Below are positions 11,179-39,189 of a stretch of 41,327 nucleotides of DNA, one piece after another (the stretch's first letter is position 1; the number at the start of each line of letters is the position of its first letter). The notes below the pieces were generated by a model, which was not told the origin of the DNA, searched no databases, and was given only the letters and a program-made list of their open reading frames with translations. Source of the DNA: an uncultured Gammaproteobacteria bacterium (GTDB lineage Bacteria; Patescibacteriota; Patescibacteriia; UBA9934); assembly GCA_964425965.1 (NCBI GenBank), contig CAYROW010000001.1, positions 9,082 through 50,408 on the forward strand. Reading direction: 5' to 3'. Made by a program: the position numbers and the translations under genes.

Positions 11179-11910
11179 TCACTTTGTCGCGCTCTTCTTT
11201 GGACTCAAGAACAAGGCGTACATCACGTAGGTAAATGCGGTGCTCACAAAAATATAGAGCGTAACGCCGCCAACAAGCGTCGTAACACCGAGAATGAGCA
11301 TCATGACCGGCAACAAATACACTATCATCTTGTTCATCGTTGCGGTCATGTCTTCGTCAAGCGCTGGGCTTGAACCACGAACCGCAGCAGGCGGACGACG
11401 AGTAATCATTTGCTTTGCCTGGAAGTACTGACAAACCGCGGAAAGAATCGCAAGAGGGATCGAAACCTTTCCGAGATCGATACCGAGGAAGATCGGCGAC
11501 ATTGTTCCAGGATTGGAAACAAAGTCATACAAGATTGATGGATCAATCGTATGAATGCCAGCCGCAAGCGCGCGATACAACGCAATGAAGACGAAGAGCT
11601 GCACGATGGTTGGCAAACATGACGCGAACGGATTCACGTTGTGGACCTTGTAGACACTCATGAGTTCCTTTGCCATGGTCTCTTTGTCGTCTTTGTACTT
11701 TTCCTTGATCTCCGCAATCTTTGGCTGGATGTCTTGAAGCTCCTTCTGCGCCTTCATCGACTTGTACGTCAGCGGCAACACGGCTCCTTTCACAAGAATC
11801 GTCATGGCGATGATCGAAAGGCCGAGGCCACCCCATGGTGCGATGTCGTAAATGAACACGAGCAAGTTATAGAGTGGCTGGTAAAGAATGGTGAAAAAGA
11901 AAGATGCCAT
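11179..11910 (-). CDS. yidC: Membrane protein insertase YidC (short, Oxa1-like form)
   Basis: ILVKGAVLPLTYKSMKAQKELQDIQPKIAEIKEKYKDDKE...NPFASCLPTIVQLFVFIALY matches the conserved YidC core. Confidence 0.9.
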   Translation of the reverse strand: MASFFFTILYQPLYNLLVFIYDIAPWGGLGLSIIAMTILVKGAVLPLTYKSMKAQKELQDIQPKIAEIKEKYKDDKETMAKELMSVYKVHNVNPFASCLPTIVQLFVFIALYRALAAGIHTIDPSILYDFVSNPGTMSPIFLGIDLGKVSIPLAILSAVCQYFQAKQMITRRPPAAVRGSSPALDEDMTATMNKMIVYLLPVMMLILGVTTLVGGVTLYIFVSTAFTYVMYALFLSPKKSATK

Positions 11911-15621: not shown

Positions 15622-15707
15622 TGGTGCGCGGAAGAGGACTCGAACCTCCACGACCTTGCGGCCACCAGCCCCTCAAGCTGGCGTGTCTACCATTTCACCA
15701 TCCGCGC
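15622..15707 (-). tRNA. tRNA-Leu (anticodon GAG), type II with long variable arm, CCA encoded
   Basis: Minus strand: GCGCGGA-TG-GTG..CAC-G-CCAGC-TTGAGGG-GCTGG-long arm-GGAGG-TTCGAGT-CCTCT-TCCGCGC-A-CCA, folded by hand. Confidence 0.85.
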
Positions 15708-15795
15708 AGGTACACCAAAGGAACGGGCAGAAGCATAACCTCAAGATTGAAAAGATTCAAGCCTTCAGGTACGATTCCCCGGCGATGCCCCTTTT

Positions 15796-15872
15796 GGACG
15801 CCTAGCTCAGCTGGTTAGAGCATCTCGTTTACACCGAGAGGGTCGAGGGTTCGAATCCCCCGGCGTCCACCA
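15796..15872 (+). tRNA. tRNA-Val (anticodon TAC), CCA encoded
   Basis: GGACGCC-TA-GCTC-AGCTGGTTA-GAGC-A-TCTCG-TTTACAC-CGAGA-GGGTC-GAGGG-TTCGAAT-CCCCC-GGCGTCC-A-CCA. There is one A:C mismatch in the T stem. Confidence 0.85.
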
Positions 15873-24130: not shown

Positions 24131-24685
24131 GTGAAACTTCCCTCGCACACAATCCTCCTCTGCTATATCGCCGCCGTCGGCCGTATCCAGAAAATGATCG
24201 AGGCAGAACCGACCGACAGCCAACACGCCATGTCCTGGCTCCAAGCGATGATCAACATCAACACCGTGTACGAAAGCATGACGGGAATTCCGTACCACGT
24301 GATCGACCCCAGCATGCATTGTCTGGGCATCGGCAGGCAGGTCTGGCGCCTCTACCACGCCGTGCAGCTCCTCGCCGAATGGCGATTCGTATCCGGCACC
24401 GATGTGACGGAACGCGCGGTCATGACGGCATTCAACGAAATCGGGGATGAAGGCTTCGGCAACGACACCATCTTCACGTGCGACAACGTGTCGCCGGCCG
24501 CACAGCGCGCAATGCTCAACACGCCCTTCTTCGACGACGGGCTGCCCGGATGGATCGTCGAAGGAGTCGGGACCGAATCGCCTACCATGTTCGTAATCAC
24601 CGGAAGCGTCGGCGTGACCGCAGAACGCCTCCCGGAGAACGTTCGGTTCAACCAGGAACTGCAGATCTGGGACGTCGTTCGCTGA
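24131..24685 (+). CDS. P-family protein 1 (unknown function, cytoplasmic, about 184 aa)
   Basis: GTG start preceded by GGAGA at 24119-24123. It is a paralog of the next three ORFs, sharing the blocks VQLLAEWRF, IFTCDNVSPAAQRAML and PENVRFNQELQIWDV. There is no signal peptide or TM segment. Confidence 0.7.
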   Translation: MKLPSHTILLCYIAAVGRIQKMIEAEPTDSQHAMSWLQAMININTVYESMTGIPYHVIDPSMHCLGIGRQVWRLYHAVQLLAEWRFVSGTDVTERAVMTAFNEIGDEGFGNDTIFTCDNVSPAAQRAMLNTPFFDDGLPGWIVEGVGTESPTMFVITGSVGVTAERLPENVRFNQELQIWDVVR

Positions 24686-24814: not shown

Positions 24815-25402
24815 ATGACCCTGCAGCTCATTCCCGAATCGCAGACCCCGACCGACAACCTCTTTCGCGCCCAGGAACGTGCGTTCGAAAGCCTCATCGT
24901 CACCATGAATGCCCCCGGAGGCGGAAGGGCGCCGAGGCATCGCATGATCCAAAACACGCTCACCGGACTCGAGGTGCTCTCCAGGAATCTGAAGGGGATT
25001 CCGTACTTCCCTCCCATTCGGCAGGTCGAATCTGACGGAATCGGACGGAAGGTTCATCACCTCTTCGCCGCCATGCAGCTCTTCGCGGAGTGGCGCTACA
25101 AACTGACGCGCGAAACGACCGAAGCGGACGTCATCGCTGCGTTCGATCTCGCGATGGCGTCGAGCACCAACGACGCCGCGATCTTCCCCGACGGCAACGT
25201 CCATCCGGCCGTGAAGCGCCTCGTTCTTCAAGGGCAGACGTATCGGCCGGAAGGAACGAGCAAGATGTCGATCCGCCTCGTTCATCCGAACCCGCGAATC
25301 GAGATCGATCTCCCGGGAAACGCATCGCCAATCATCGACACGGTTCCGCCGACCGTTCGGTTCAATCCTCAGACGTTCGTGTGGGAGATCTTCCTGCACT
25401 GA
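24815..25402 (+). CDS. P-family protein 2 (195 aa)
   Basis: The ATG at 24815 is preceded by cccGGAGAcatc. Paralog blocks are MQLFAEWRY, IFPDGNVHPAVKRLVL and PPTVRFNPQTFVWEI. Confidence 0.75.
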   Translation: MTLQLIPESQTPTDNLFRAQERAFESLIVTMNAPGGGRAPRHRMIQNTLTGLEVLSRNLKGIPYFPPIRQVESDGIGRKVHHLFAAMQLFAEWRYKLTRETTEADVIAAFDLAMASSTNDAAIFPDGNVHPAVKRLVLQGQTYRPEGTSKMSIRLVHPNPRIEIDLPGNASPIIDTVPPTVRFNPQTFVWEIFLH

Positions 25403-25503: not shown

Positions 25504-26088
25504 GTGCATCGTTTACAAAATGTGCTCATCGCGCAATGCGTTGACGCCGCGTTCAATCGAGTACGGGAACACCTCGGAGACGTTCATCATCATGACGGGC
25601 ATGCATTGCGTGCGACCGCGCTTCACCAGCTTGATCGACTCTGGCAAACGATCGCAATGGGCCATGTCGAGTGCGTATCGTATCAAACGATCGCAATCAG
25701 CGGGCTCAACACCGTCACCGCACGCGGAGTCATCGCTTTGTACCAGGCGCTACAATCACTCGCGGCATGGCGACTTAGTCATCCGACTCGCAATGACATC
25801 CCGCCGGAGATTCACGAACTCTTCGAACACGTCGGCTCGCCTCCAGGAGGCGAGATCATCTTCCCTCGCGGCAACGTCTCACCTGACGCGCGGCAGGCAA
25901 TCCTGCAGGCCGATGATCGCCTCAAAAACGGCAACAGCGGATGGAACGTCTCCGTCGACACCATCCGATCTCGGATATACGTCGAAAACGCCAACGAGTC
26001 GTTCACCATCGAAATTCCACCAACCGTCGTCTTCAACCCGAATTCTGGGGTTTGGGGCATCCAAATCCCAAAAAAGGAGAATCCATGA
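25504..26088 (+). CDS. P-family protein 3 (194 aa)
   Basis: GTG at 25504 after GGAGGcaat. It is in frame with track ORF 25090..26088, whose upstream part overlaps P2 and is not coding. Paralog blocks are LQSLAAWRL, IFPRGNVSPDARQAIL and PPTVVFNPNSGVWGI. Confidence 0.7.
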   Translation: MHRLQNVLIAQCVDAAFNRVREHLGDVHHHDGHALRATALHQLDRLWQTIAMGHVECVSYQTIAISGLNTVTARGVIALYQALQSLAAWRLSHPTRNDIPPEIHELFEHVGSPPGGEIIFPRGNVSPDARQAILQADDRLKNGNSGWNVSVDTIRSRIYVENANESFTIEIPPTVVFNPNSGVWGIQIPKKENP

Positions 26089-26654
26089 GCCGCGAACTCG
26101 CGTCAGCAACCACCTTGAAGCTTCACGGAGCAGTCAGCCGGACAAAAGCCGCGCTCGTGCTACCAACGGCTCCAGACGTCATCGGGAAACATCATCCGCA
26201 ACACCAGGCGCTCGCCGCCCTCAAGGAATATGCGGCACAGGATGAGCCGCTGGTCCGATACAAACTCCTCGATGCCGCCGTCCTCCTGAAATACCCAGGA
26301 AGCTGGGCGCTGTTCCAACTCTTCGAGGCCATCCAGCTTCGGAATGCGTGGCAACTGGGGCTCATCGACACCCTTGATGACGACGGCATCGCGAATGCCT
26401 TTGACCGCGTCAGTCGGCCTCGCGACATGCTCCCCTTCTTCCCAGGGGGGAATGTCGCACCGCAGCTTCGACTGAAACTCCTCGCGTACGGACCGCTCAG
26501 GCCAAAGATCGGCTACGCCGTGTACTTGGAAGAAGGTTCGAACGGGCAGCATGTCGCGAAACTCACGCACAACGAGGTCGAGCCGTTCCGCATTCTTCTT
26601 CCGAAAGGAATTCACCACAACTCGGAAAGGGATGTGTGGGAAACGGTTCCGTAA
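26085..26654 (+). CDS. P-family protein 4 (189 aa), translationally coupled to P3
   Basis: The ATG at 26085 overlaps the P3 TGA (ATGA) and is preceded by AAGGAGA. Paralog blocks are IQLRNAWQL, FFPGGNVAPQLRLKLL and PKGIHHNSERDVWET. Confidence 0.7.
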   Translation: MSRELASATTLKLHGAVSRTKAALVLPTAPDVIGKHHPQHQALAALKEYAAQDEPLVRYKLLDAAVLLKYPGSWALFQLFEAIQLRNAWQLGLIDTLDDDGIANAFDRVSRPRDMLPFFPGGNVAPQLRLKLLAYGPLRPKIGYAVYLEEGSNGQHVAKLTHNEVEPFRILLPKGIHHNSERDVWETVP

Positions 26655-26663
26655 CTCTCGCTC

Positions 26664-26703
26664 ACGGCTCGGCCTCCCAGGAGGTCGAGCCGTTCGTCGT
26701 TTC
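26664..26703 (+). terminator. Terminator of the P3-P4 unit
   Basis: ACGGCTCGGCCTCC-ca-GGAGGTCGAGCCGT (one G:T pair) followed by TCGTCGTTTC. Confidence 0.65.
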
Positions 26704-26704
26704 A

Positions 26705-26735
26705 TAACAGAAACGAGCGGCCCGTGGGCCGCCCG
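26705..26735 (-). terminator. Terminator of Q1
   Basis: Minus strand: GCGGCCCACGGGCCGC followed by TCGTTTCTGTT. The core is identical to the Q2 terminator. Confidence 0.65.
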
Positions 26736-26747
26736 TCGTGTCGTCGT

Positions 26748-27533
26748 TCAGATACTGAAGACCCTCAGCGGAGGGATGCAGAGTGCCCGCAGCGTCTCCT
26801 CGCGGAGTCGCGAATTCGCTGCACTGTGGAGGAGCTCTCGACTAGCTCGCGTTTCCCGCATCTCATCCGTCACACTGGCCAGGTAGAGCGCGAGTTCCCC
26901 CATGGTCATGGTCGGAACGAGCACCGCCGACGGCAGTTCACGCGTGAGCACCTCGGCAACAGTAAGCGCCATGAACGCCGCAATCTCCTCCGCCACCGTG
27001 AGTGCCTTCGGCACAACCGGCACCGCGAGCGACGGATCGTAGATGAACAGCTCATCGAGCGGCATGAGCATGCGCAGGCCACACCTTTCCAGAGTCCCGT
27101 TCACCGTAGCCCTGAGGTCCGAGTGAGGGAGCTCCGAAACGAGATACTTCGACATCTTCCCAGGATTGACCCCTTGTGTCGAAGGCTCGCGCCCCATGGC
27201 GATCACTTCCCGGTTCACGTCCATGGTCGCGAAGACCAGGACGCGATTGAGATCGCTGAACATACCGAACGTGCATCCAGCCCACCGCAGCATCTCCTCT
27301 GCGAGATTCACCATCTTTGGACCGACGCCATCCAGGGCACCGAGATTCGAACGGTTGAAGCAGGCGAGCATCCAAGCCATCTCGATCCGGTTCTCGAGGC
27401 ACACGTTTTTGAAACGCGTCACGAGCGCAGACGACCACTCTTCATGCCGGGCACGCTCGAGGAGCGTATCGATCGGCATGCCGAGGACATCGAGCGGAAC
27501 CGGGGACGGGATCGGGAGCGTGAGCTTGGCCAA
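26748..27533 (-). CDS. Q-family protein 1 (261 aa); possible tandem helix-hairpin-helix (RNAP alpha-CTD-like) protein
   Basis: TTG start preceded by AAGGAGG. It is a paralog of Q2, sharing SPVPLDVLGMPIDTLLER, DELF and the C-terminal L.YLA...D.M...R..LL.S. The HhH call rests only on pattern resemblance. Confidence 0.7.
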   Translation of the reverse strand: MAKLTLPIPSPVPLDVLGMPIDTLLERARHEEWSSALVTRFKNVCLENRIEMAWMLACFNRSNLGALDGVGPKMVNLAEEMLRWAGCTFGMFSDLNRVLVFATMDVNREVIAMGREPSTQGVNPGKMSKYLVSELPHSDLRATVNGTLERCGLRMLMPLDELFIYDPSLAVPVVPKALTVAEEIAAFMALTVAEVLTRELPSAVLVPTMTMGELALYLASVTDEMRETRASRELLHSAANSRLREETLRALCIPPLRVFSI

Positions 27534-27604
27534 GAGACCTCCTTGCCTCGCACGAGAGTGTGCGGAGGACGAGGAACCTTAGCAAATATTTATAAAAATG
27601 TCCA
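27534..27604 (-). promoter_or_regulatory. Q1 promoter (TGGACA-N17-TAAGGT) plus conserved structured leader
   Basis: It is about 87 percent identical over 67 nt to the Q2 upstream region. The hairpin CCTC-C-GCAC/GTGC-GAGG contains a CCTCC anti-SD just upstream of the AAGGAGG SD. Confidence 0.55.
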
Positions 27605-27627
27605 TCACGACTCTCTCTGCCTTACTC

Positions 27628-27662
27628 CAAATGTGAAACGAGCGGCCCGTGGGCCGCTCGTC
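27628..27662 (-). terminator. Terminator of Q2
   Basis: Minus strand: CGAGCGGCCCACGGGCCGCTCG followed by TTTCACATTT. It shares 29 of 30 nt with the Q1 terminator. Confidence 0.65.
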
Positions 27663-27683
27663 GTCGTGAGTCGCGCGTGATTA

Positions 27684-28427
27684 TCAGTCTACGAGGATGC
27701 TGATCCCCATCTGCCTAAGCACGTCACGGTTAAAATTCCATTTCACCGAAGCGAGCAGATCGTTTCGCGCCCGTACCATGGCAGGAGACATGGGGTCCTT
27801 CGCGGTCGCAAGATAGAAGAGGATCTCCACAACATGTGCGTCCGAGTCGAGACCGAACGGACGAGGATCCGTCTGCACCTCCCCAACCTTCAGCGCAGCG
27901 AAGCGCGCAATTTCTCCAGCCGGCGTGCCTTTCTTCACCCGCTTCAGGTCGAAGCAGAACAGCTCGTCGGGTGACATACGGGAACGAAGACCGTACCGGG
28001 CAAGAGTAGCGACGAAGCGCCTATCCTTCACTCGGTCATCAGTTCCCGCGATCGCCATACGAACCTCGATATCAGAGGGCCAGTCCTGATTCGACGTCTT
28101 CCTTACCTCAGCCGCGCAAAATTCGGTGGCCGCACGAAGCTGCGGGAACATGTCGAGATGGCACTCAACCAACGCGAGAGCCTCTTCGGCGAGATCCGCG
28201 ATGAGAGCACCGCAACCATCGCACTCGAGAAGGCGTTTCCGTGAATTGATCGCGAGGGTCCAAACGGAATTGAAACCGTTTTTCCGACAGAAGTTCCCAA
28301 TCAGAGTGATTTTTTTGCGCGGATGGCGTTTTTCCGCCGAGAGGCGATCGAGAAGCGTATCGATCGGCAGCAGAAGCGTCTCGAGCGGAACGGGAGACAG
28401 AACGGGAAGAATGAGCGGGTTGGCCAA
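27684..28427 (-). CDS. Q-family protein 2 (247 aa)
   Basis: The start is set at the TTG at 28427, by analogy with Q1 (caaaGGAGGccttTTGGCCAAC). The track's start at 28448 has no SD. Confidence 0.7.
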   Translation of the reverse strand: MANPLILPVLSPVPLETLLLPIDTLLDRLSAEKRHPRKKITLIGNFCRKNGFNSVWTLAINSRKRLLECDGCGALIADLAEEALALVECHLDMFPQLRAATEFCAAEVRKTSNQDWPSDIEVRMAIAGTDDRVKDRRFVATLARYGLRSRMSPDELFCFDLKRVKKGTPAGEIARFAALKVGEVQTDPRPFGLDSDAHVVEILFYLATAKDPMSPAMVRARNDLLASVKWNFNRDVLRQMGISILVD

Positions 28428-28499
28428 AAGGCCTCCTTTGTCTTGCACGAGAGTGTGCAGAGGACAAGGAATCTTAGCGAAGATTTACAAAAATGTCCA
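28428..28499 (-). promoter_or_regulatory. Q2 promoter (TGGACA-N17-TAAGAT) plus conserved structured leader
   Basis: This is the second copy of the Q1 element. Its hairpin shows a compensatory C-G to U-A change. Confidence 0.55.
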
Positions 28500-28574
28500 C
28501 ATGCAAAATAGTGCATCCTTGACCGAGCCTCACGCAGCCGATAGGCTTGCTCCTCACCCAAGCATAGATTCTGC

Positions 28575-29708
28575 ATGTCTCTCGCGTTGTTCCAGCAATT
28601 CCACGAAGCACTCAAGCGCGCAAAGCGTCCGGTTGTTATACTTCGACAAAACCCAACGGTCGATGACTTTACCGCAGCGTTTAGCATTGCTGCATTGTGC
28701 AAAACACTTGGCCTTCCATGTCCGATTGTCACCAGCGGCGGACGAGCGCCCGATGCCCTCAAATTTCTTTCCACATTCCACGATGTCGCAGGCGATCTTG
28801 GAAACATCAACGCGCTTACTCTTCGTGTGAATCTTGACCACGCAAAAGTTGACGGTCTCACCTACGCCGTTGACGGCAATGCGCTTGTTGTTACCATCAC
28901 GCCAAAAACCGGCGCATGGCAACCAGCCGACGTTCGCATTGCAAGCAACGACTACCGGTTCGATCTCGTCATCGCAATTGGAACGCCGGATCGATCAAGC
29001 TTTGGCACACTTTTCTCAACCTACGCCGATTTCTTTCTAAAAACTCCAACCGTCGTTATCGACCACGGTCCAGAAAATGAACATTTCGGCACCATCAACA
29101 TCGTCGACTTAACCGCAACGAGCGTGTCCGAGGTTTGCTTTAACCTTTTCACACACATCGACGCGACCATCGTCACCCCTGACGTTGCCACAACGCTTCT
29201 TGCGGGCATGATGAGTAAAACAAAGAGCTTCCGCGCACCAAACGTTTCACCAAAGACGCTCGAAATTGCACAAAAACTTATTGAGAAAAAAGCTGACCGC
29301 GAGATGATCGTTGAGCATCTGTACCGAACACGATCCGTGGAAACGCTCCGCCTTTGGGGCAGAGCACTTGCTCGCCTGAAGGCCGACGAATCGATCGGCC
29401 TTGTGTGGACGCTCATCACAACACAGGATTTTGCTGCCGCCGGAGCGAATGCCGACGCACTTCGTGATATCGCCGACGAGCTCCTCATGACATCTCCTGC
29501 CGCAAAAGTCGCCCTCATCCTTTTTGAAACACATGAGGGCGCGATTGCCGGACAGCTTTCCGCGCAACGCCCATTCGACGCCCTCGTTCTTGGCGCCCCA
29601 TTCCGCGCCACCGGCACCCGAGAATTCGCCCATCTCTCCCCCACGCAAGCCAATATCGTCGACGCCGAACGTGGTGTTGTCTCGCATCTGAAGACAAGCT
29701 TGCGGTAA
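28575..29708 (+). CDS. DHH-family phosphoesterase (NrnA-like) with degenerate motifs
   Basis: Length, layout and the DHHA1-like C-terminus fit NrnA/bifunctional oligoribonuclease. However, motif I reads NPTVDDFTAA (usually H.nPDgDa.GS) and motif III reads VIDHGPENEHFG (DHG instead of DHH). Confidence 0.65.
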   Translation: MSLALFQQFHEALKRAKRPVVILRQNPTVDDFTAAFSIAALCKTLGLPCPIVTSGGRAPDALKFLSTFHDVAGDLGNINALTLRVNLDHAKVDGLTYAVDGNALVVTITPKTGAWQPADVRIASNDYRFDLVIAIGTPDRSSFGTLFSTYADFFLKTPTVVIDHGPENEHFGTINIVDLTATSVSEVCFNLFTHIDATIVTPDVATTLLAGMMSKTKSFRAPNVSPKTLEIAQKLIEKKADREMIVEHLYRTRSVETLRLWGRALARLKADESIGLVWTLITTQDFAAAGANADALRDIADELLMTSPAAKVALILFETHEGAIAGQLSAQRPFDALVLGAPFRATGTREFAHLSPTQANIVDAERGVVSHLKTSLR

Positions 29709-31755: not shown

Positions 31756-31832
31756 TGGTGCGCGCACGTGGACTCGAACCACGGACCTTCACAATGTCAA
31801 TGTGACGCTCTAACCAACTGAGCTATGCGCGC
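31756..31832 (-). tRNA. tRNA-Val (anticodon GAC), CCA encoded
   Basis: Minus strand: GCGCGCA-TA-GCTC-AGTTGGTTA-GAGC-G-TCACA-TTGACAT-TGTGA-AGGTC-CGTGG-TTCGAGT-CCACG-TGCGCGC-A-CCA. Confidence 0.9.
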
Positions 31833-32569: not shown

Positions 32570-32646
32570 TGGTAGGCTCACCTGGACTCGAACCAGGGAC
32601 CACCGAGGTATAAGCTCGGCGCTCTAACCAACTGAGCTATGAGCCC
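32570..32646 (-). tRNA. tRNA-Ile (anticodon TAT), CCA encoded
   Basis: Minus strand: GGGCTCA-TA-GCTC-AGTTGGTTA-GAGC-G-CCGAG-CTTATAC-CTCGG-TGGTC-CCTGG-TTCGAGT-CCAGG-TGAGCCT-A-CCA. Positions 34-36 read TAT. Confidence 0.85.
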
Positions 32647-39102: not shown

Positions 39103-39189
39103 TGGTGCGGATGGGGAGACTCGAACTCCCAAGTCGGTGAAGACATAGGCTTCTGAGACCTACGCGTATACCAATTCCGCCACATCCGC
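39103..39189 (-). tRNA. tRNA-Leu (anticodon CAG), type II, CCA encoded
   Basis: Minus strand: GCGGATG-TG-GCGGAATTGGTATACGC-G-TAGGT-CTCAGAA-GCCTA-long arm-GGGAG-TTCGAGT-CTCCC-CATCCGC-A-CCA. Confidence 0.85.

Follow-up and report, generated by a model that had tools for sequence, protein, structure and literature searches.

The 41,327-nt stretch analysed here (the window) comes from an uncultured bacterium of the Patescibacteria and carries two genes, Q1 and Q2, which lie in tandem on the minus strand and are each framed by a promoter, a leader hairpin and a terminator hairpin. The Q1 and Q2 proteins shared 35% identity over 237 aligned residues (BLASTP) and 33% in a global alignment, slightly above the ~30% given in the original prediction. 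Their non-coding ends were far better kept. The 67-nt blocks from TGGACA to AAGGAGG (Q1 27538–27604, Q2 28432–28499, minus strand) differed by eight substitutions and one 1-nt indel, an inserted A, and the terminator blocks (26710–26739 against 27635–27664) differed at 1 of 30 positions; both counts agreed with those first reported (eight differences plus one indel, and 29 of 30 nt in common). The claim that the ends are better kept than the proteins also held over ten core-family loci, in which mean identity was 71.5% for the leaders and only 57% (nucleotides) or 39% (amino acids) for the coding bodies. No further copy of the upstream block or the terminator block was found in the window, and shuffles gave zero expected matches for a 27-nt promoter pattern and likewise for a 25-nt terminator pattern.

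The features of the two cassettes are as follows.

26748–27533, minus strand: Q1 coding sequence, 261 aa, TTG start at 27531–27533
27684–28427, minus strand: Q2 coding sequence, 247 aa, TTG start at 28425–28427
27599–27604, minus strand: Q1 -35 hexamer TGGACA, with a 17-nt A/T-rich spacer to the -10 hexamer
27576–27581, minus strand: Q1 -10 hexamer TAAGGT, preceded by TG; the homologous positions in relatives read TAAGGT, TAAGAT, TAGGAT, CAATAT or TATCTT
28494–28499, minus strand: Q2 -35 hexamer TGGACA
28471–28476, minus strand: Q2 -10 hexamer TAAGAT
27545–27570, minus strand: Q1 leader hairpin GUCCUCCGCAC[ACUCUC]GUGCGAGGC, minimum free energy (MFE) -11.5 kcal/mol, its first G being the inferred transcription start
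28440–28465, minus strand: Q2 leader hairpin GUCCUCUGCAC[ACUCUC]GUGCAAGAC, MFE -9.2 kcal/mol, with U7-A22 in place of C7-G22 of Q1
27538–27544, minus strand: Q1 Shine-Dalgarno (SD) sequence AAGGAGG, 4 nt ahead of the TTG start at 27531–27533
28432–28438, minus strand: Q2 SD sequence AAGGAGG, preceding the TTG start at 28425–28427
26713–26736, minus strand: Q1 terminator hairpin ACGGGCGGCC-CACG-GGCCGCTCGT, -23.8 kcal/mol, z-score -4.4, flagged as terminator-like
27638–27661, minus strand: Q2 terminator hairpin ACGAGCGGCC-CACG-GGCCGCTCGT, -23.2 kcal/mol, z-score -5.6

The Q family has very few members: a profile search run exhaustively over 1.84 billion representatives returned 43 proteins at E ≤1e-3, of which ~25 were full length. 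The nearest named homologue came from the metagenome-assembled genome GCA_038064675.1, and its contig was syntenic with the window. Core-family loci with DNA were L001, L003, L004, L005, L006, L008, L009, L010, and L017; L011–L013 belonged to the L009 lineage, which is present in Hainich H41 groundwater, and L018 and L019 carried the protein of L017. Three further loci (L014, L015, and L016) formed a distant subfamily, which lay beside a peroxiredoxin (AhpC) gene and not between the DHH-like gene and the valyl-tRNA synthetase gene (ValRS) as in the core family (L014 1–1200, L015 760–1101, L016 4357–5630), with tandem Q-like pairs in L014 and L015. In total, 13 distinct leaders were collected, some of them from proteins merely ~20–25% identical. 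Protein-guided scans of metagenome and genome collections contributed the L009 lineage alone, and a word-indexed protein search picked up only a few of the distant members.

The block upstream of the Q genes reads as a sigma-70-type promoter (TGGACA, 17 nt, TAAGGT/TAAGAT), and the TGGACA hexamer was unchanged in all but one of the 11 leaders read from the core family. All 13 leaders had a single layout, in which the -10 hexamer is followed by five variable nucleotides, an invariant GTCC, a hairpin beginning at that G, and the SD sequence. The sequence from the -10 hexamer to GTCC was not conserved (CCTC, CCTT, TACC, GGGC, GAGT, CATC, CTTC, CGTT, and others). The G of GTCC lay 6 nt past the -10 hexamer, and a pyrimidine-G step was kept in 13 of 13 leaders. 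The promoter geometry and this conserved step make the G of GTCC the most likely transcription start, and the hairpin probably stands at the 5′ end of the Q mRNA.

Start codons across the family were TTG, GTG or ATG. The N-terminal peptide MAKLTLPIPSPVPLDVL, which is encoded from the Q1 TTG, was conserved family-wide with synonymous changes, and the internal ATG chosen by the gene caller was not conserved in the family; the TTG start is thus supported.

The leader hairpin and the terminator

The originally proposed leader fold, CCUC-C-GCAC paired with GUGC, proved to be the MFE fold (CCUC-C-GCAC[ACUCUC]GUGC-GAGG), CCUCC segment included, when the RNA was started at the G of GTCC. The compensatory change claimed with it, from C-G in Q1 to U-A in Q2, was real and concerned pair 7-22. 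Homologous leaders were collected and folded from the same G, which was the check that had been suggested for this structure: 13 of 13 kept a hairpin in the same position, at -7.2 to -12.9 kcal/mol, and compensatory changes were seen among them. The hairpin measured 23–26 nt and comprised a G1-C closing pair, a bulged or paired U2, 3–4 pairs, a bulge, 4–5 pairs and a loop of 5–6 nt. G1 was paired in 12 of the 13 MFE folds. G1, U2, C3, C4 and the G-rich base of the stem were invariant, and the upper stem and the loop were variable. At least seven different stem sequences occupied one position:

GCAC/GUGC: Q1, Q2, L003, L004, L010
ACAC/GUGU: L009
UGCAC/GUGCA: L017
CCGC/GCGG: L001, L006, L008
GCCG/CGGC: L014
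GCCGG/UCGGC: L016
GUCG/CGAC: second gene of L015

When the nine core leaders were aligned together with MAFFT and submitted to RNAalifold, no structure was predicted, because the 23-nt hairpins of type B were misaligned with those of type A. Once the two core types had been split, a single topology, (.(((.(((((loop))))))))), was found for both. In the six-sequence alignment of type A, 90.7% of the cells were paired, a value reached by 1 of 500 column shuffles, and controls in which the partners were slid by 1–3 columns gave 18–44%. Type A pairs changed on both sides were 5-23 (U-A, C-G, G-C), 7-22 (C-G, U-A) and 8-21 (G-C, A-U). A manual, structure-guided alignment with type B added C-G at 8-21, G-C at 9-20 (against C-G) and C-G at 10-19 (against A-U). 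In Q2, L004, L006, and L008, several G-to-A changes in the 3′ arm were absorbed by pairing that slipped to an adjacent U in the 5′ arm. A covariance model trained solely on type A detected two leaders of type B, those of L001 and L006 (E 0.003–0.005); over the 96 kb of the window and the loci it found no other convincing copy.

Folding energy was also compared with shuffled sequences. Taken alone, the hairpin segment gave P values of 0.004–0.11 per leader against mononucleotide shuffles, and the combined value for eight stem variants, which are not fully independent, was ~1e-6. This test used energy only, on segments cut at the closing C, a cut that often leaves G1 unpaired. The comparative evidence, which is the chief support, marks the leader hairpin as a real, conserved and covarying structure.

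In the core family a strong SD sequence came 0–3 nt past the hairpin. It was unpaired in the fold from the predicted start through the SD, in which it stood 2–4 nt beyond the stem. The loops were not conserved among the leaders. Searches against Rfam 15 gave no non-tRNA match at gathering thresholds in the window, and none at E up to 1 in 26650–28600. The variable loops and the lack of an Rfam match fit a generic structural element.

Three other RNA structures or mechanisms were considered and rejected. A UCCU/AGGA helix that sequesters the SD appears when the fold is started further upstream; its bases were not conserved and probably lie before the transcription start. Another hairpin, which spans the start codon (GGUCUCUUGGCC / GGCCUUUUGGCC), was not conserved in relatives. 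Attenuation was discarded, as no U-tract follows the leader hairpin.

The terminator stem was perfect, 10–11 bp long and GC-rich, and it lay just past the stop codon. The arrangement of ACGAGCGGCC, a variable 4-nt loop and GG(C/T)CGCTCGT was present in all 11 core-family loci whose 3′ flank was read. The sole changes in the stem, G for A in the 5′ arm and T for C in the 3′ arm, leave it paired via G-U, and this argues for selection and function at the RNA level. The U-tract was mediocre: the Q1 tail TCTGTTATGA passed a simple scan, the Q2 tail UUUCACAUUUGG did not, and relatives had UUCGCGUUUU. GGCC within the terminator was common to Q1, Q2 and L005, with GGTC in all other lineages, a distribution which marks GGCC as the derived state of both cassettes in the window lineage. 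The distant subfamily kept the GTCC-hairpin leader, and its terminators were unrelated to those of the core family, being ordinary and U-rich.

An integron attC site would be expected near an integrase and would have a GTTRRRY core within an imperfect inverted repeat. This identity was rejected for the terminator, whose stem is perfect and is followed by GTTTCTG or GTTTCAC with no RRR core; each cassette also has its own promoter.

Exchange of the gene bodies

An allele replacement was found in L005, a contig from run SRR31968665 that represents a strain near-identical to that of the window. Positions 1–247 of L005 matched window positions 27703–27457 at 98%, covering the 3′ end of Q2, the Q2 terminator, and the promoter, leader and first codons of Q1. 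Positions 906–1412 matched 26737–26231 at 98.8%, from the Q1 terminator into the gene P4. The ~660 nt between them could not be aligned to the window and encoded a protein 33% identical to Q1. Two segments of Q1 are relevant here.

26737–27471, minus strand: Q1 segment swapped for an unrelated allele in the near-identical strain L005, bounded by one junction at codon 22 and another within the 5′ arm of the terminator
26985–27080, minus strand: island of conserved DNA inside the gene, which encodes GLR..MP.(D/E)ELF.YDP and coincides with the main crossover point of the mosaic alleles

Mosaic alleles were evident among the relatives as well. Sliding nucleotide identity between Q1 and L001 was 25–57% up to alignment column 150 and 78–90% after it, and that between L001 and L008 was 70–88% up to column 170 and 42–60% thereafter. 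Similar and dissimilar blocks alternated between L003 and L004. BLASTN matches of Q1 to L003, L004, L006, L008, and L009 were confined to the island at 26985–27080.

In the modules that alleles share, the synonymous divergence (dS) was ~0.5 and its ratio to the nonsynonymous divergence (dN), expressed as dN/dS, was ~0.3. Housekeeping genes of the window and of the L001 genomes were separated by dS of 1.2–2.0. This indicated that the modules moved between lineages after the genomes had diverged. Unlike modules stood at dN ~0.85 with saturated dS, so that these bodies are old alleles in which positive selection is not demonstrable. For Q1 against Q2 taken whole, the saturation of dS made dN/dS uninformative. 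Diversifying selection on the proteins, one of the two explanations offered originally, was not shown, either by the shared modules or by the divergent ones. The other explanation, recombination at the cassette boundaries, gained support from the allele replacement in L005 and from the mosaic alleles.

The closeness of leaders and that of proteins disagreed: the leaders of Q1 and Q2 were nearest each other (85%), and the Q1 protein was nearest that of L001 (51%). Taken together, the sequence comparisons strongly support exchange of the Q gene bodies by homologous recombination, and the flanks may be homogenised within one genome. A diversity-generating retroelement was also considered as a source of the variation and rejected, the divergence spanning the whole gene body.

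The encoded proteins and the neighbouring genes

No match for Q or P was found in Pfam, NCBIfam, PADLOC or PHROGs above thresholds. The AlphaFold2 model of Q1 had a mean predicted local distance difference test score (pLDDT) of 87, and the top 17 Foldseek matches to it in the PDB were C-terminal domains of the RNA polymerase alpha subunit (alpha-CTD) or full-length alpha chains. Residues ~20–95 of Q superposed on the isolated alpha-CTD with target-normalised TM-scores of 0.77–0.88, a root mean square deviation of ~2 Å, a probability of 0.97–1.0 and E values of 0.18–0.68. Profile matches to alpha-CTD were weak (E 0.18 for Q residues 40–87 in a PDB profile search; E 0.0015 with a probability of 17% in hhalign). 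According to the model, the N-terminal half of Q1 has an alpha-CTD-like fold.

Q thus resembles alpha-CTD (Pfam PF03118) in fold, and Q1 keeps equivalents of its DNA-binding residues: R40, N43, G71, and K73 align with R265, N268, G296, and K298 of alpha. The arginine equivalent to R265 was nearly invariant in a 25-member alignment, the G and K positions varied among members, and Q2 was without the R and K of this set. Unlike RNA polymerase alpha, Q is free-standing, has no alpha N-terminal domain, carries an extra C-terminal helical domain and stays below the Pfam thresholds. More distant database matches covered the alpha-CTD-like domain only, and some long proteins carried several copies of it. 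The N-terminus MAKLTLPIPSPVPLDVL, as read from the sequence, had no hydrophobic core and no lipobox; in the Q1 model it formed a strand at residues 8–10 with high confidence.

Across the loci, the interval from the DHH-like gene to ValRS was a variable island with one or two Q genes and zero to four P genes. The identifiable neighbours of the Q genes were housekeeping genes. The neighbouring features in the window are the following.

24131–24685, 24815–25402, 25504–26088 and 26085–26654, plus strand: four divergent P paralogs converging on Q1, at 23–26% identity to P4, which heads the alignment
28500–28574, plus strand: divergent promoter of the DHH-like gene, TTGACC-17 nt-TAGGCT, back to back with the Q2 promoter and kept in L001, L003, L006, L008 and L010
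28575–29708: the DHH-like gene

Upstream of the Q2 -35 hexamer, the conservation of GGTCAAG and AGCCTATCGG is explained by this divergent promoter, to which they belong. The P paralogs in the window had their own, non-conserved promoters and terminators, and P3 and P4 overlapped by ATGA. Modelling of P gave a poor structure (pLDDT 65), and nothing informative came from a fold search with it. Beside Q, P homologues occurred once in L001 and twice in L017, a P4-like gene flanked Q in L005, and none was present in L009 or L010.

The single P gene of L001 was preceded by a similar leader (~11340–11410, minus strand), with TAGGAT, 5 nt, GTCC and a hairpin from that G (GUCC..GGGG....CCCU..GGGC). The P leaders in the window and in L017 were without this arrangement. 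Recombination could have brought this leader to the P gene of L001; alternatively, GTCC could mark start sites in general.

The window also contained five tRNA genes, Leu-GAG, Val-TAC, Val-GAC, Ile-TAT and Leu-CAG (15622–15872, 31756–31832, 32570–32646, 39103–39189). The anticodon of the tRNA-Ile was TAT and not the lysidine-modified CAT that reads AUA.

Proposed function of the cassette and comparison with known systems

Here, we propose that each Q gene would be a self-contained monocistronic expression cassette made up of a promoter, a 5′ hairpin, a strong ribosome-binding site and a 3′ hairpin. The 5′-terminal hairpin would shield the end of the mRNA from 5′-end-dependent RNases and leave the adjacent SD free, and the two hairpins together would give a stable and well-translated monocistronic mRNA. 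By likeness to ompA, papA and aprE, stabilisation of the mRNA is the most likely role of the 5′ hairpin. The flanks would be under ordinary purifying selection for expression, and they would also provide homology arms for the exchange of the bodies, with the promoter, leader and first ~21 codons at one end, the terminator at the other and the internal island between them. Resident flanks would then stay similar while old, divergent protein modules shuffle in and out, and the ends would look conserved because purifying selection on them is combined with body exchange anchored in the conserved stretches. A stabilising expression cassette with recombining bodies is the best explanation of the locus as a whole, and we hold it with somewhat more belief than doubt.

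Several points weigh against this explanation. The energy of the whole 5′ untranslated region (UTR) was unremarkable against dinucleotide shuffles (z-scores -0.5 to -1.4). The sample of leaders was small and related, the compensatory changes may amount to a handful of events, and the swap of stems between types A and B was maybe one event. The transcription start is predicted only: with a start further downstream the RNA hairpin model fails, and with one further upstream the hairpin is not 5′-terminal. No RNase gene was identified among those open reading frames of the window that were scanned. A purely structural role would not account for the constancy of GUCC and the stem base.

A translational switch was the central suggestion of the original prediction. 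The 5′ arm would alternate between the 3′ arm, acting as a pseudo-SD, and the real SD, and so gate the access of ribosomes upon some signal. The segment concerned in Q1 is given first, followed by the cost of pairing the SD in each leader. For this comparison suboptimal folds were enumerated from G1 through the SD, and the best structure with at least four SD bases paired upstream was set against the hairpin fold.

27564–27568, minus strand: CCUCC in the 5′ arm of the Q1 hairpin, the proposed anti-SD, whose pairing with GGAGG costs +0.8 kcal/mol
Q1, Q2 and L009: SD-paired fold 0.8, 0.6 and 0.3 kcal/mol, respectively, above the hairpin fold
L016 and L003: 2.4 and 3.8 kcal/mol, respectively, above it
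L006, L004, L008, L001, L010 and L014: 6.2–13.0 kcal/mol above it
L017 and the second gene of L015: no SD-paired fold found within 14 kcal/mol

The part of the suggestion that stood is that SD pairing is competitive (<1 kcal/mol) in Q1, Q2, and L009, where a sizeable SD-occluded fraction could exist. In addition, a CUCC distinct from this motif lies just before the SD in the second gene of L015 and pairs with it in the MFE fold. Neither the motif nor the competition was conserved, as CCUCC or CCUCU occurred only in those three leaders and the other 10 of 13 had CCCUC, CCGUC, CCGUU or CCGCC, at a cost of 2.4 to >14 kcal/mol. The pseudo-SD arm was also free to vary (GAGG, AAGA, CGGG, AGGG, CGG): it is the hairpin that is conserved and not its complementarity to the SD. 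With the variable loop and the lack of an Rfam match, no ligand-binding or sensor element was found. SD complementarity is hence not supported as the conserved role of the hairpin, and we consider a switch unlikely. The match of CCUCC or CCUCU to the SD in Q1 and Q2 is real but specific to the lineage, and it would at most trim translation modestly through partial occlusion of the SD.

Pairing with the SD was also seen from the coding side. Codons 4–14 at the N-terminus (L-P-I-P-S-P-V-P-L, window 27490–27533) are rich in CUCC/UCCC and pair with the SD in several MFE folds of the leader plus coding start, which may be a by-product of their composition.

The fixed bases of the leader bring in another explanation, in which the hairpin with its GUCC is recognised in trans by an RNA-binding factor or an RNase, and all Q-family mRNAs are thereby co-regulated after transcription. 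G1, U2, C3, C4 and the stem base stayed constant in 13 leaders while the upper stem and loop varied, and a plain stabiliser would need no fixed sequence. The same invariance could equally reflect start-site selection or initial transcription, the variable loop offers no sequence-specific handle, and a candidate factor is lacking. We regard this explanation as rather improbable. The same low degree of belief is given to a broader proposal, that leader and terminator form a portable module which combines a common control tagged by GUCC, exerted by a factor that is maybe Q itself and acts either on the RNA or at +1 of the DNA, with fixed arms for cassette exchange at the level of the population. 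If it were true, strains could swap whole alleles of a protein that may imitate the domain with which the cell's own RNA polymerase alpha binds DNA, or compete with it.

The inverted repeat might also act as DNA, namely as an operator over the start that is bound by a dimeric regulator, possibly Q itself, in which case the covariation would be that of a kept palindrome. The element lies at +1 to +26, where repressor operators lie; Q has a predicted DNA-binding fold with equivalents of R265 and N268, and in Q1 also of G296 and K298; and GTCC is invariant even in distant members and begins the P leader of L001 too. However, the repeat is asymmetric in its two arms: bulges lie at positions 2 and 6/7, loops are 5 or 6 nt long, and one closing pair, in L003, is G-U. 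The register slips that absorb G-to-A changes are RNA-like. The site does not track the protein either, since Q1 and Q2 are 35% identical and their inner palindrome is identical. An operator is accordingly given little credence. Least credible of all, and already largely refuted, is that the flanks merely reflect a recent tandem duplication after which the proteins diverged fast under positive selection: Q1 and Q2 are adjacent and have lineage-specific leader and terminator states in common, but leader and terminator are also kept between genomes whose housekeeping genes stand at dS 1.2–2.0, the bodies are old alleles (dN ~0.85, saturated dS) with dN/dS ~0.3 in shared modules, and L005 records replacement and not gradual change.

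Promoters, 5′ UTRs and mRNA turnover are barely known in uncultivated Patescibacteria (the candidate phyla radiation, CPR). The Q locus offers a clean, comparatively supported sigma-70-like promoter with a predicted start and a structured leader, which can be checked against metatranscriptomes. It also provides a case of whole-allele replacement between conserved non-coding flanks in a near-identical pair of strains with a streamlined genome, and it draws attention to a small, fast-shuffling family of free-standing alpha-CTD-like proteins. Current ideas are not overturned, and the riboregulatory switch, the most exciting part of the original prediction, was unsupported by the relatives.

The stabilising cassette that we favour has counterparts among well-described leaders. 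In the passages of PMC3997798 that cite Emory 1992, Bricker 1999, and Hambraeus 2002, hairpins at the 5′ end and ribosome-binding sites near it stabilise mRNA in E. coli and B. subtilis. Like the 5′ stem-loop stabilisers of ompA and papA in E. coli and aprE in B. subtilis, the Q leader opens, at its predicted 5′ end, with a hairpin that is short and stable, and a strong ribosome-binding site comes next. As in those leaders, the sequence of the loop is unimportant, and the monocistronic Q gene also ends in a stable hairpin. The Q hairpin lies closer to the SD (0–3 nt) than that of aprE. The first four nucleotides of the Q leaders are an invariant GUCC, which is not required in the known stabilisers, and the 5′ end of Q is a predicted one.

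SD-sequestering leaders, such as the ROSE and fourU thermometers and riboswitch platforms, resemble those of Q1, Q2, and L009 in that a C/U-rich stretch pairs with the SD at near-equal energy. They differ in that the dominant Q fold leaves the SD free, the anti-SD is not conserved, and the Q leaders have no aptamer or temperature-sensitive design and no Rfam match.

With respect to evolution, the closest analogue, by resemblance, is the erp family (OspE/F/Elp) of Borrelia burgdorferi with its “upstream homology box” (PMC10016077). Both have a conserved promoter and first codons in front of divergent mosaic bodies, several paralogs per genome, and frequent recombination between alleles. However, the Erp proteins are lipoproteins of the cell surface whose genes are carried by cp32 prophages, and the conserved N-terminus of these proteins is a signal peptide, whereas Q is a predicted cytoplasmic, alpha-CTD-like protein without signal peptide or lipobox, its genes are chromosomal and lie between housekeeping genes, and the 3′ terminator is conserved as well. 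The Q system is ordinary in kind, as a structured leader and a mosaic family with conserved flanks, and new in detail.

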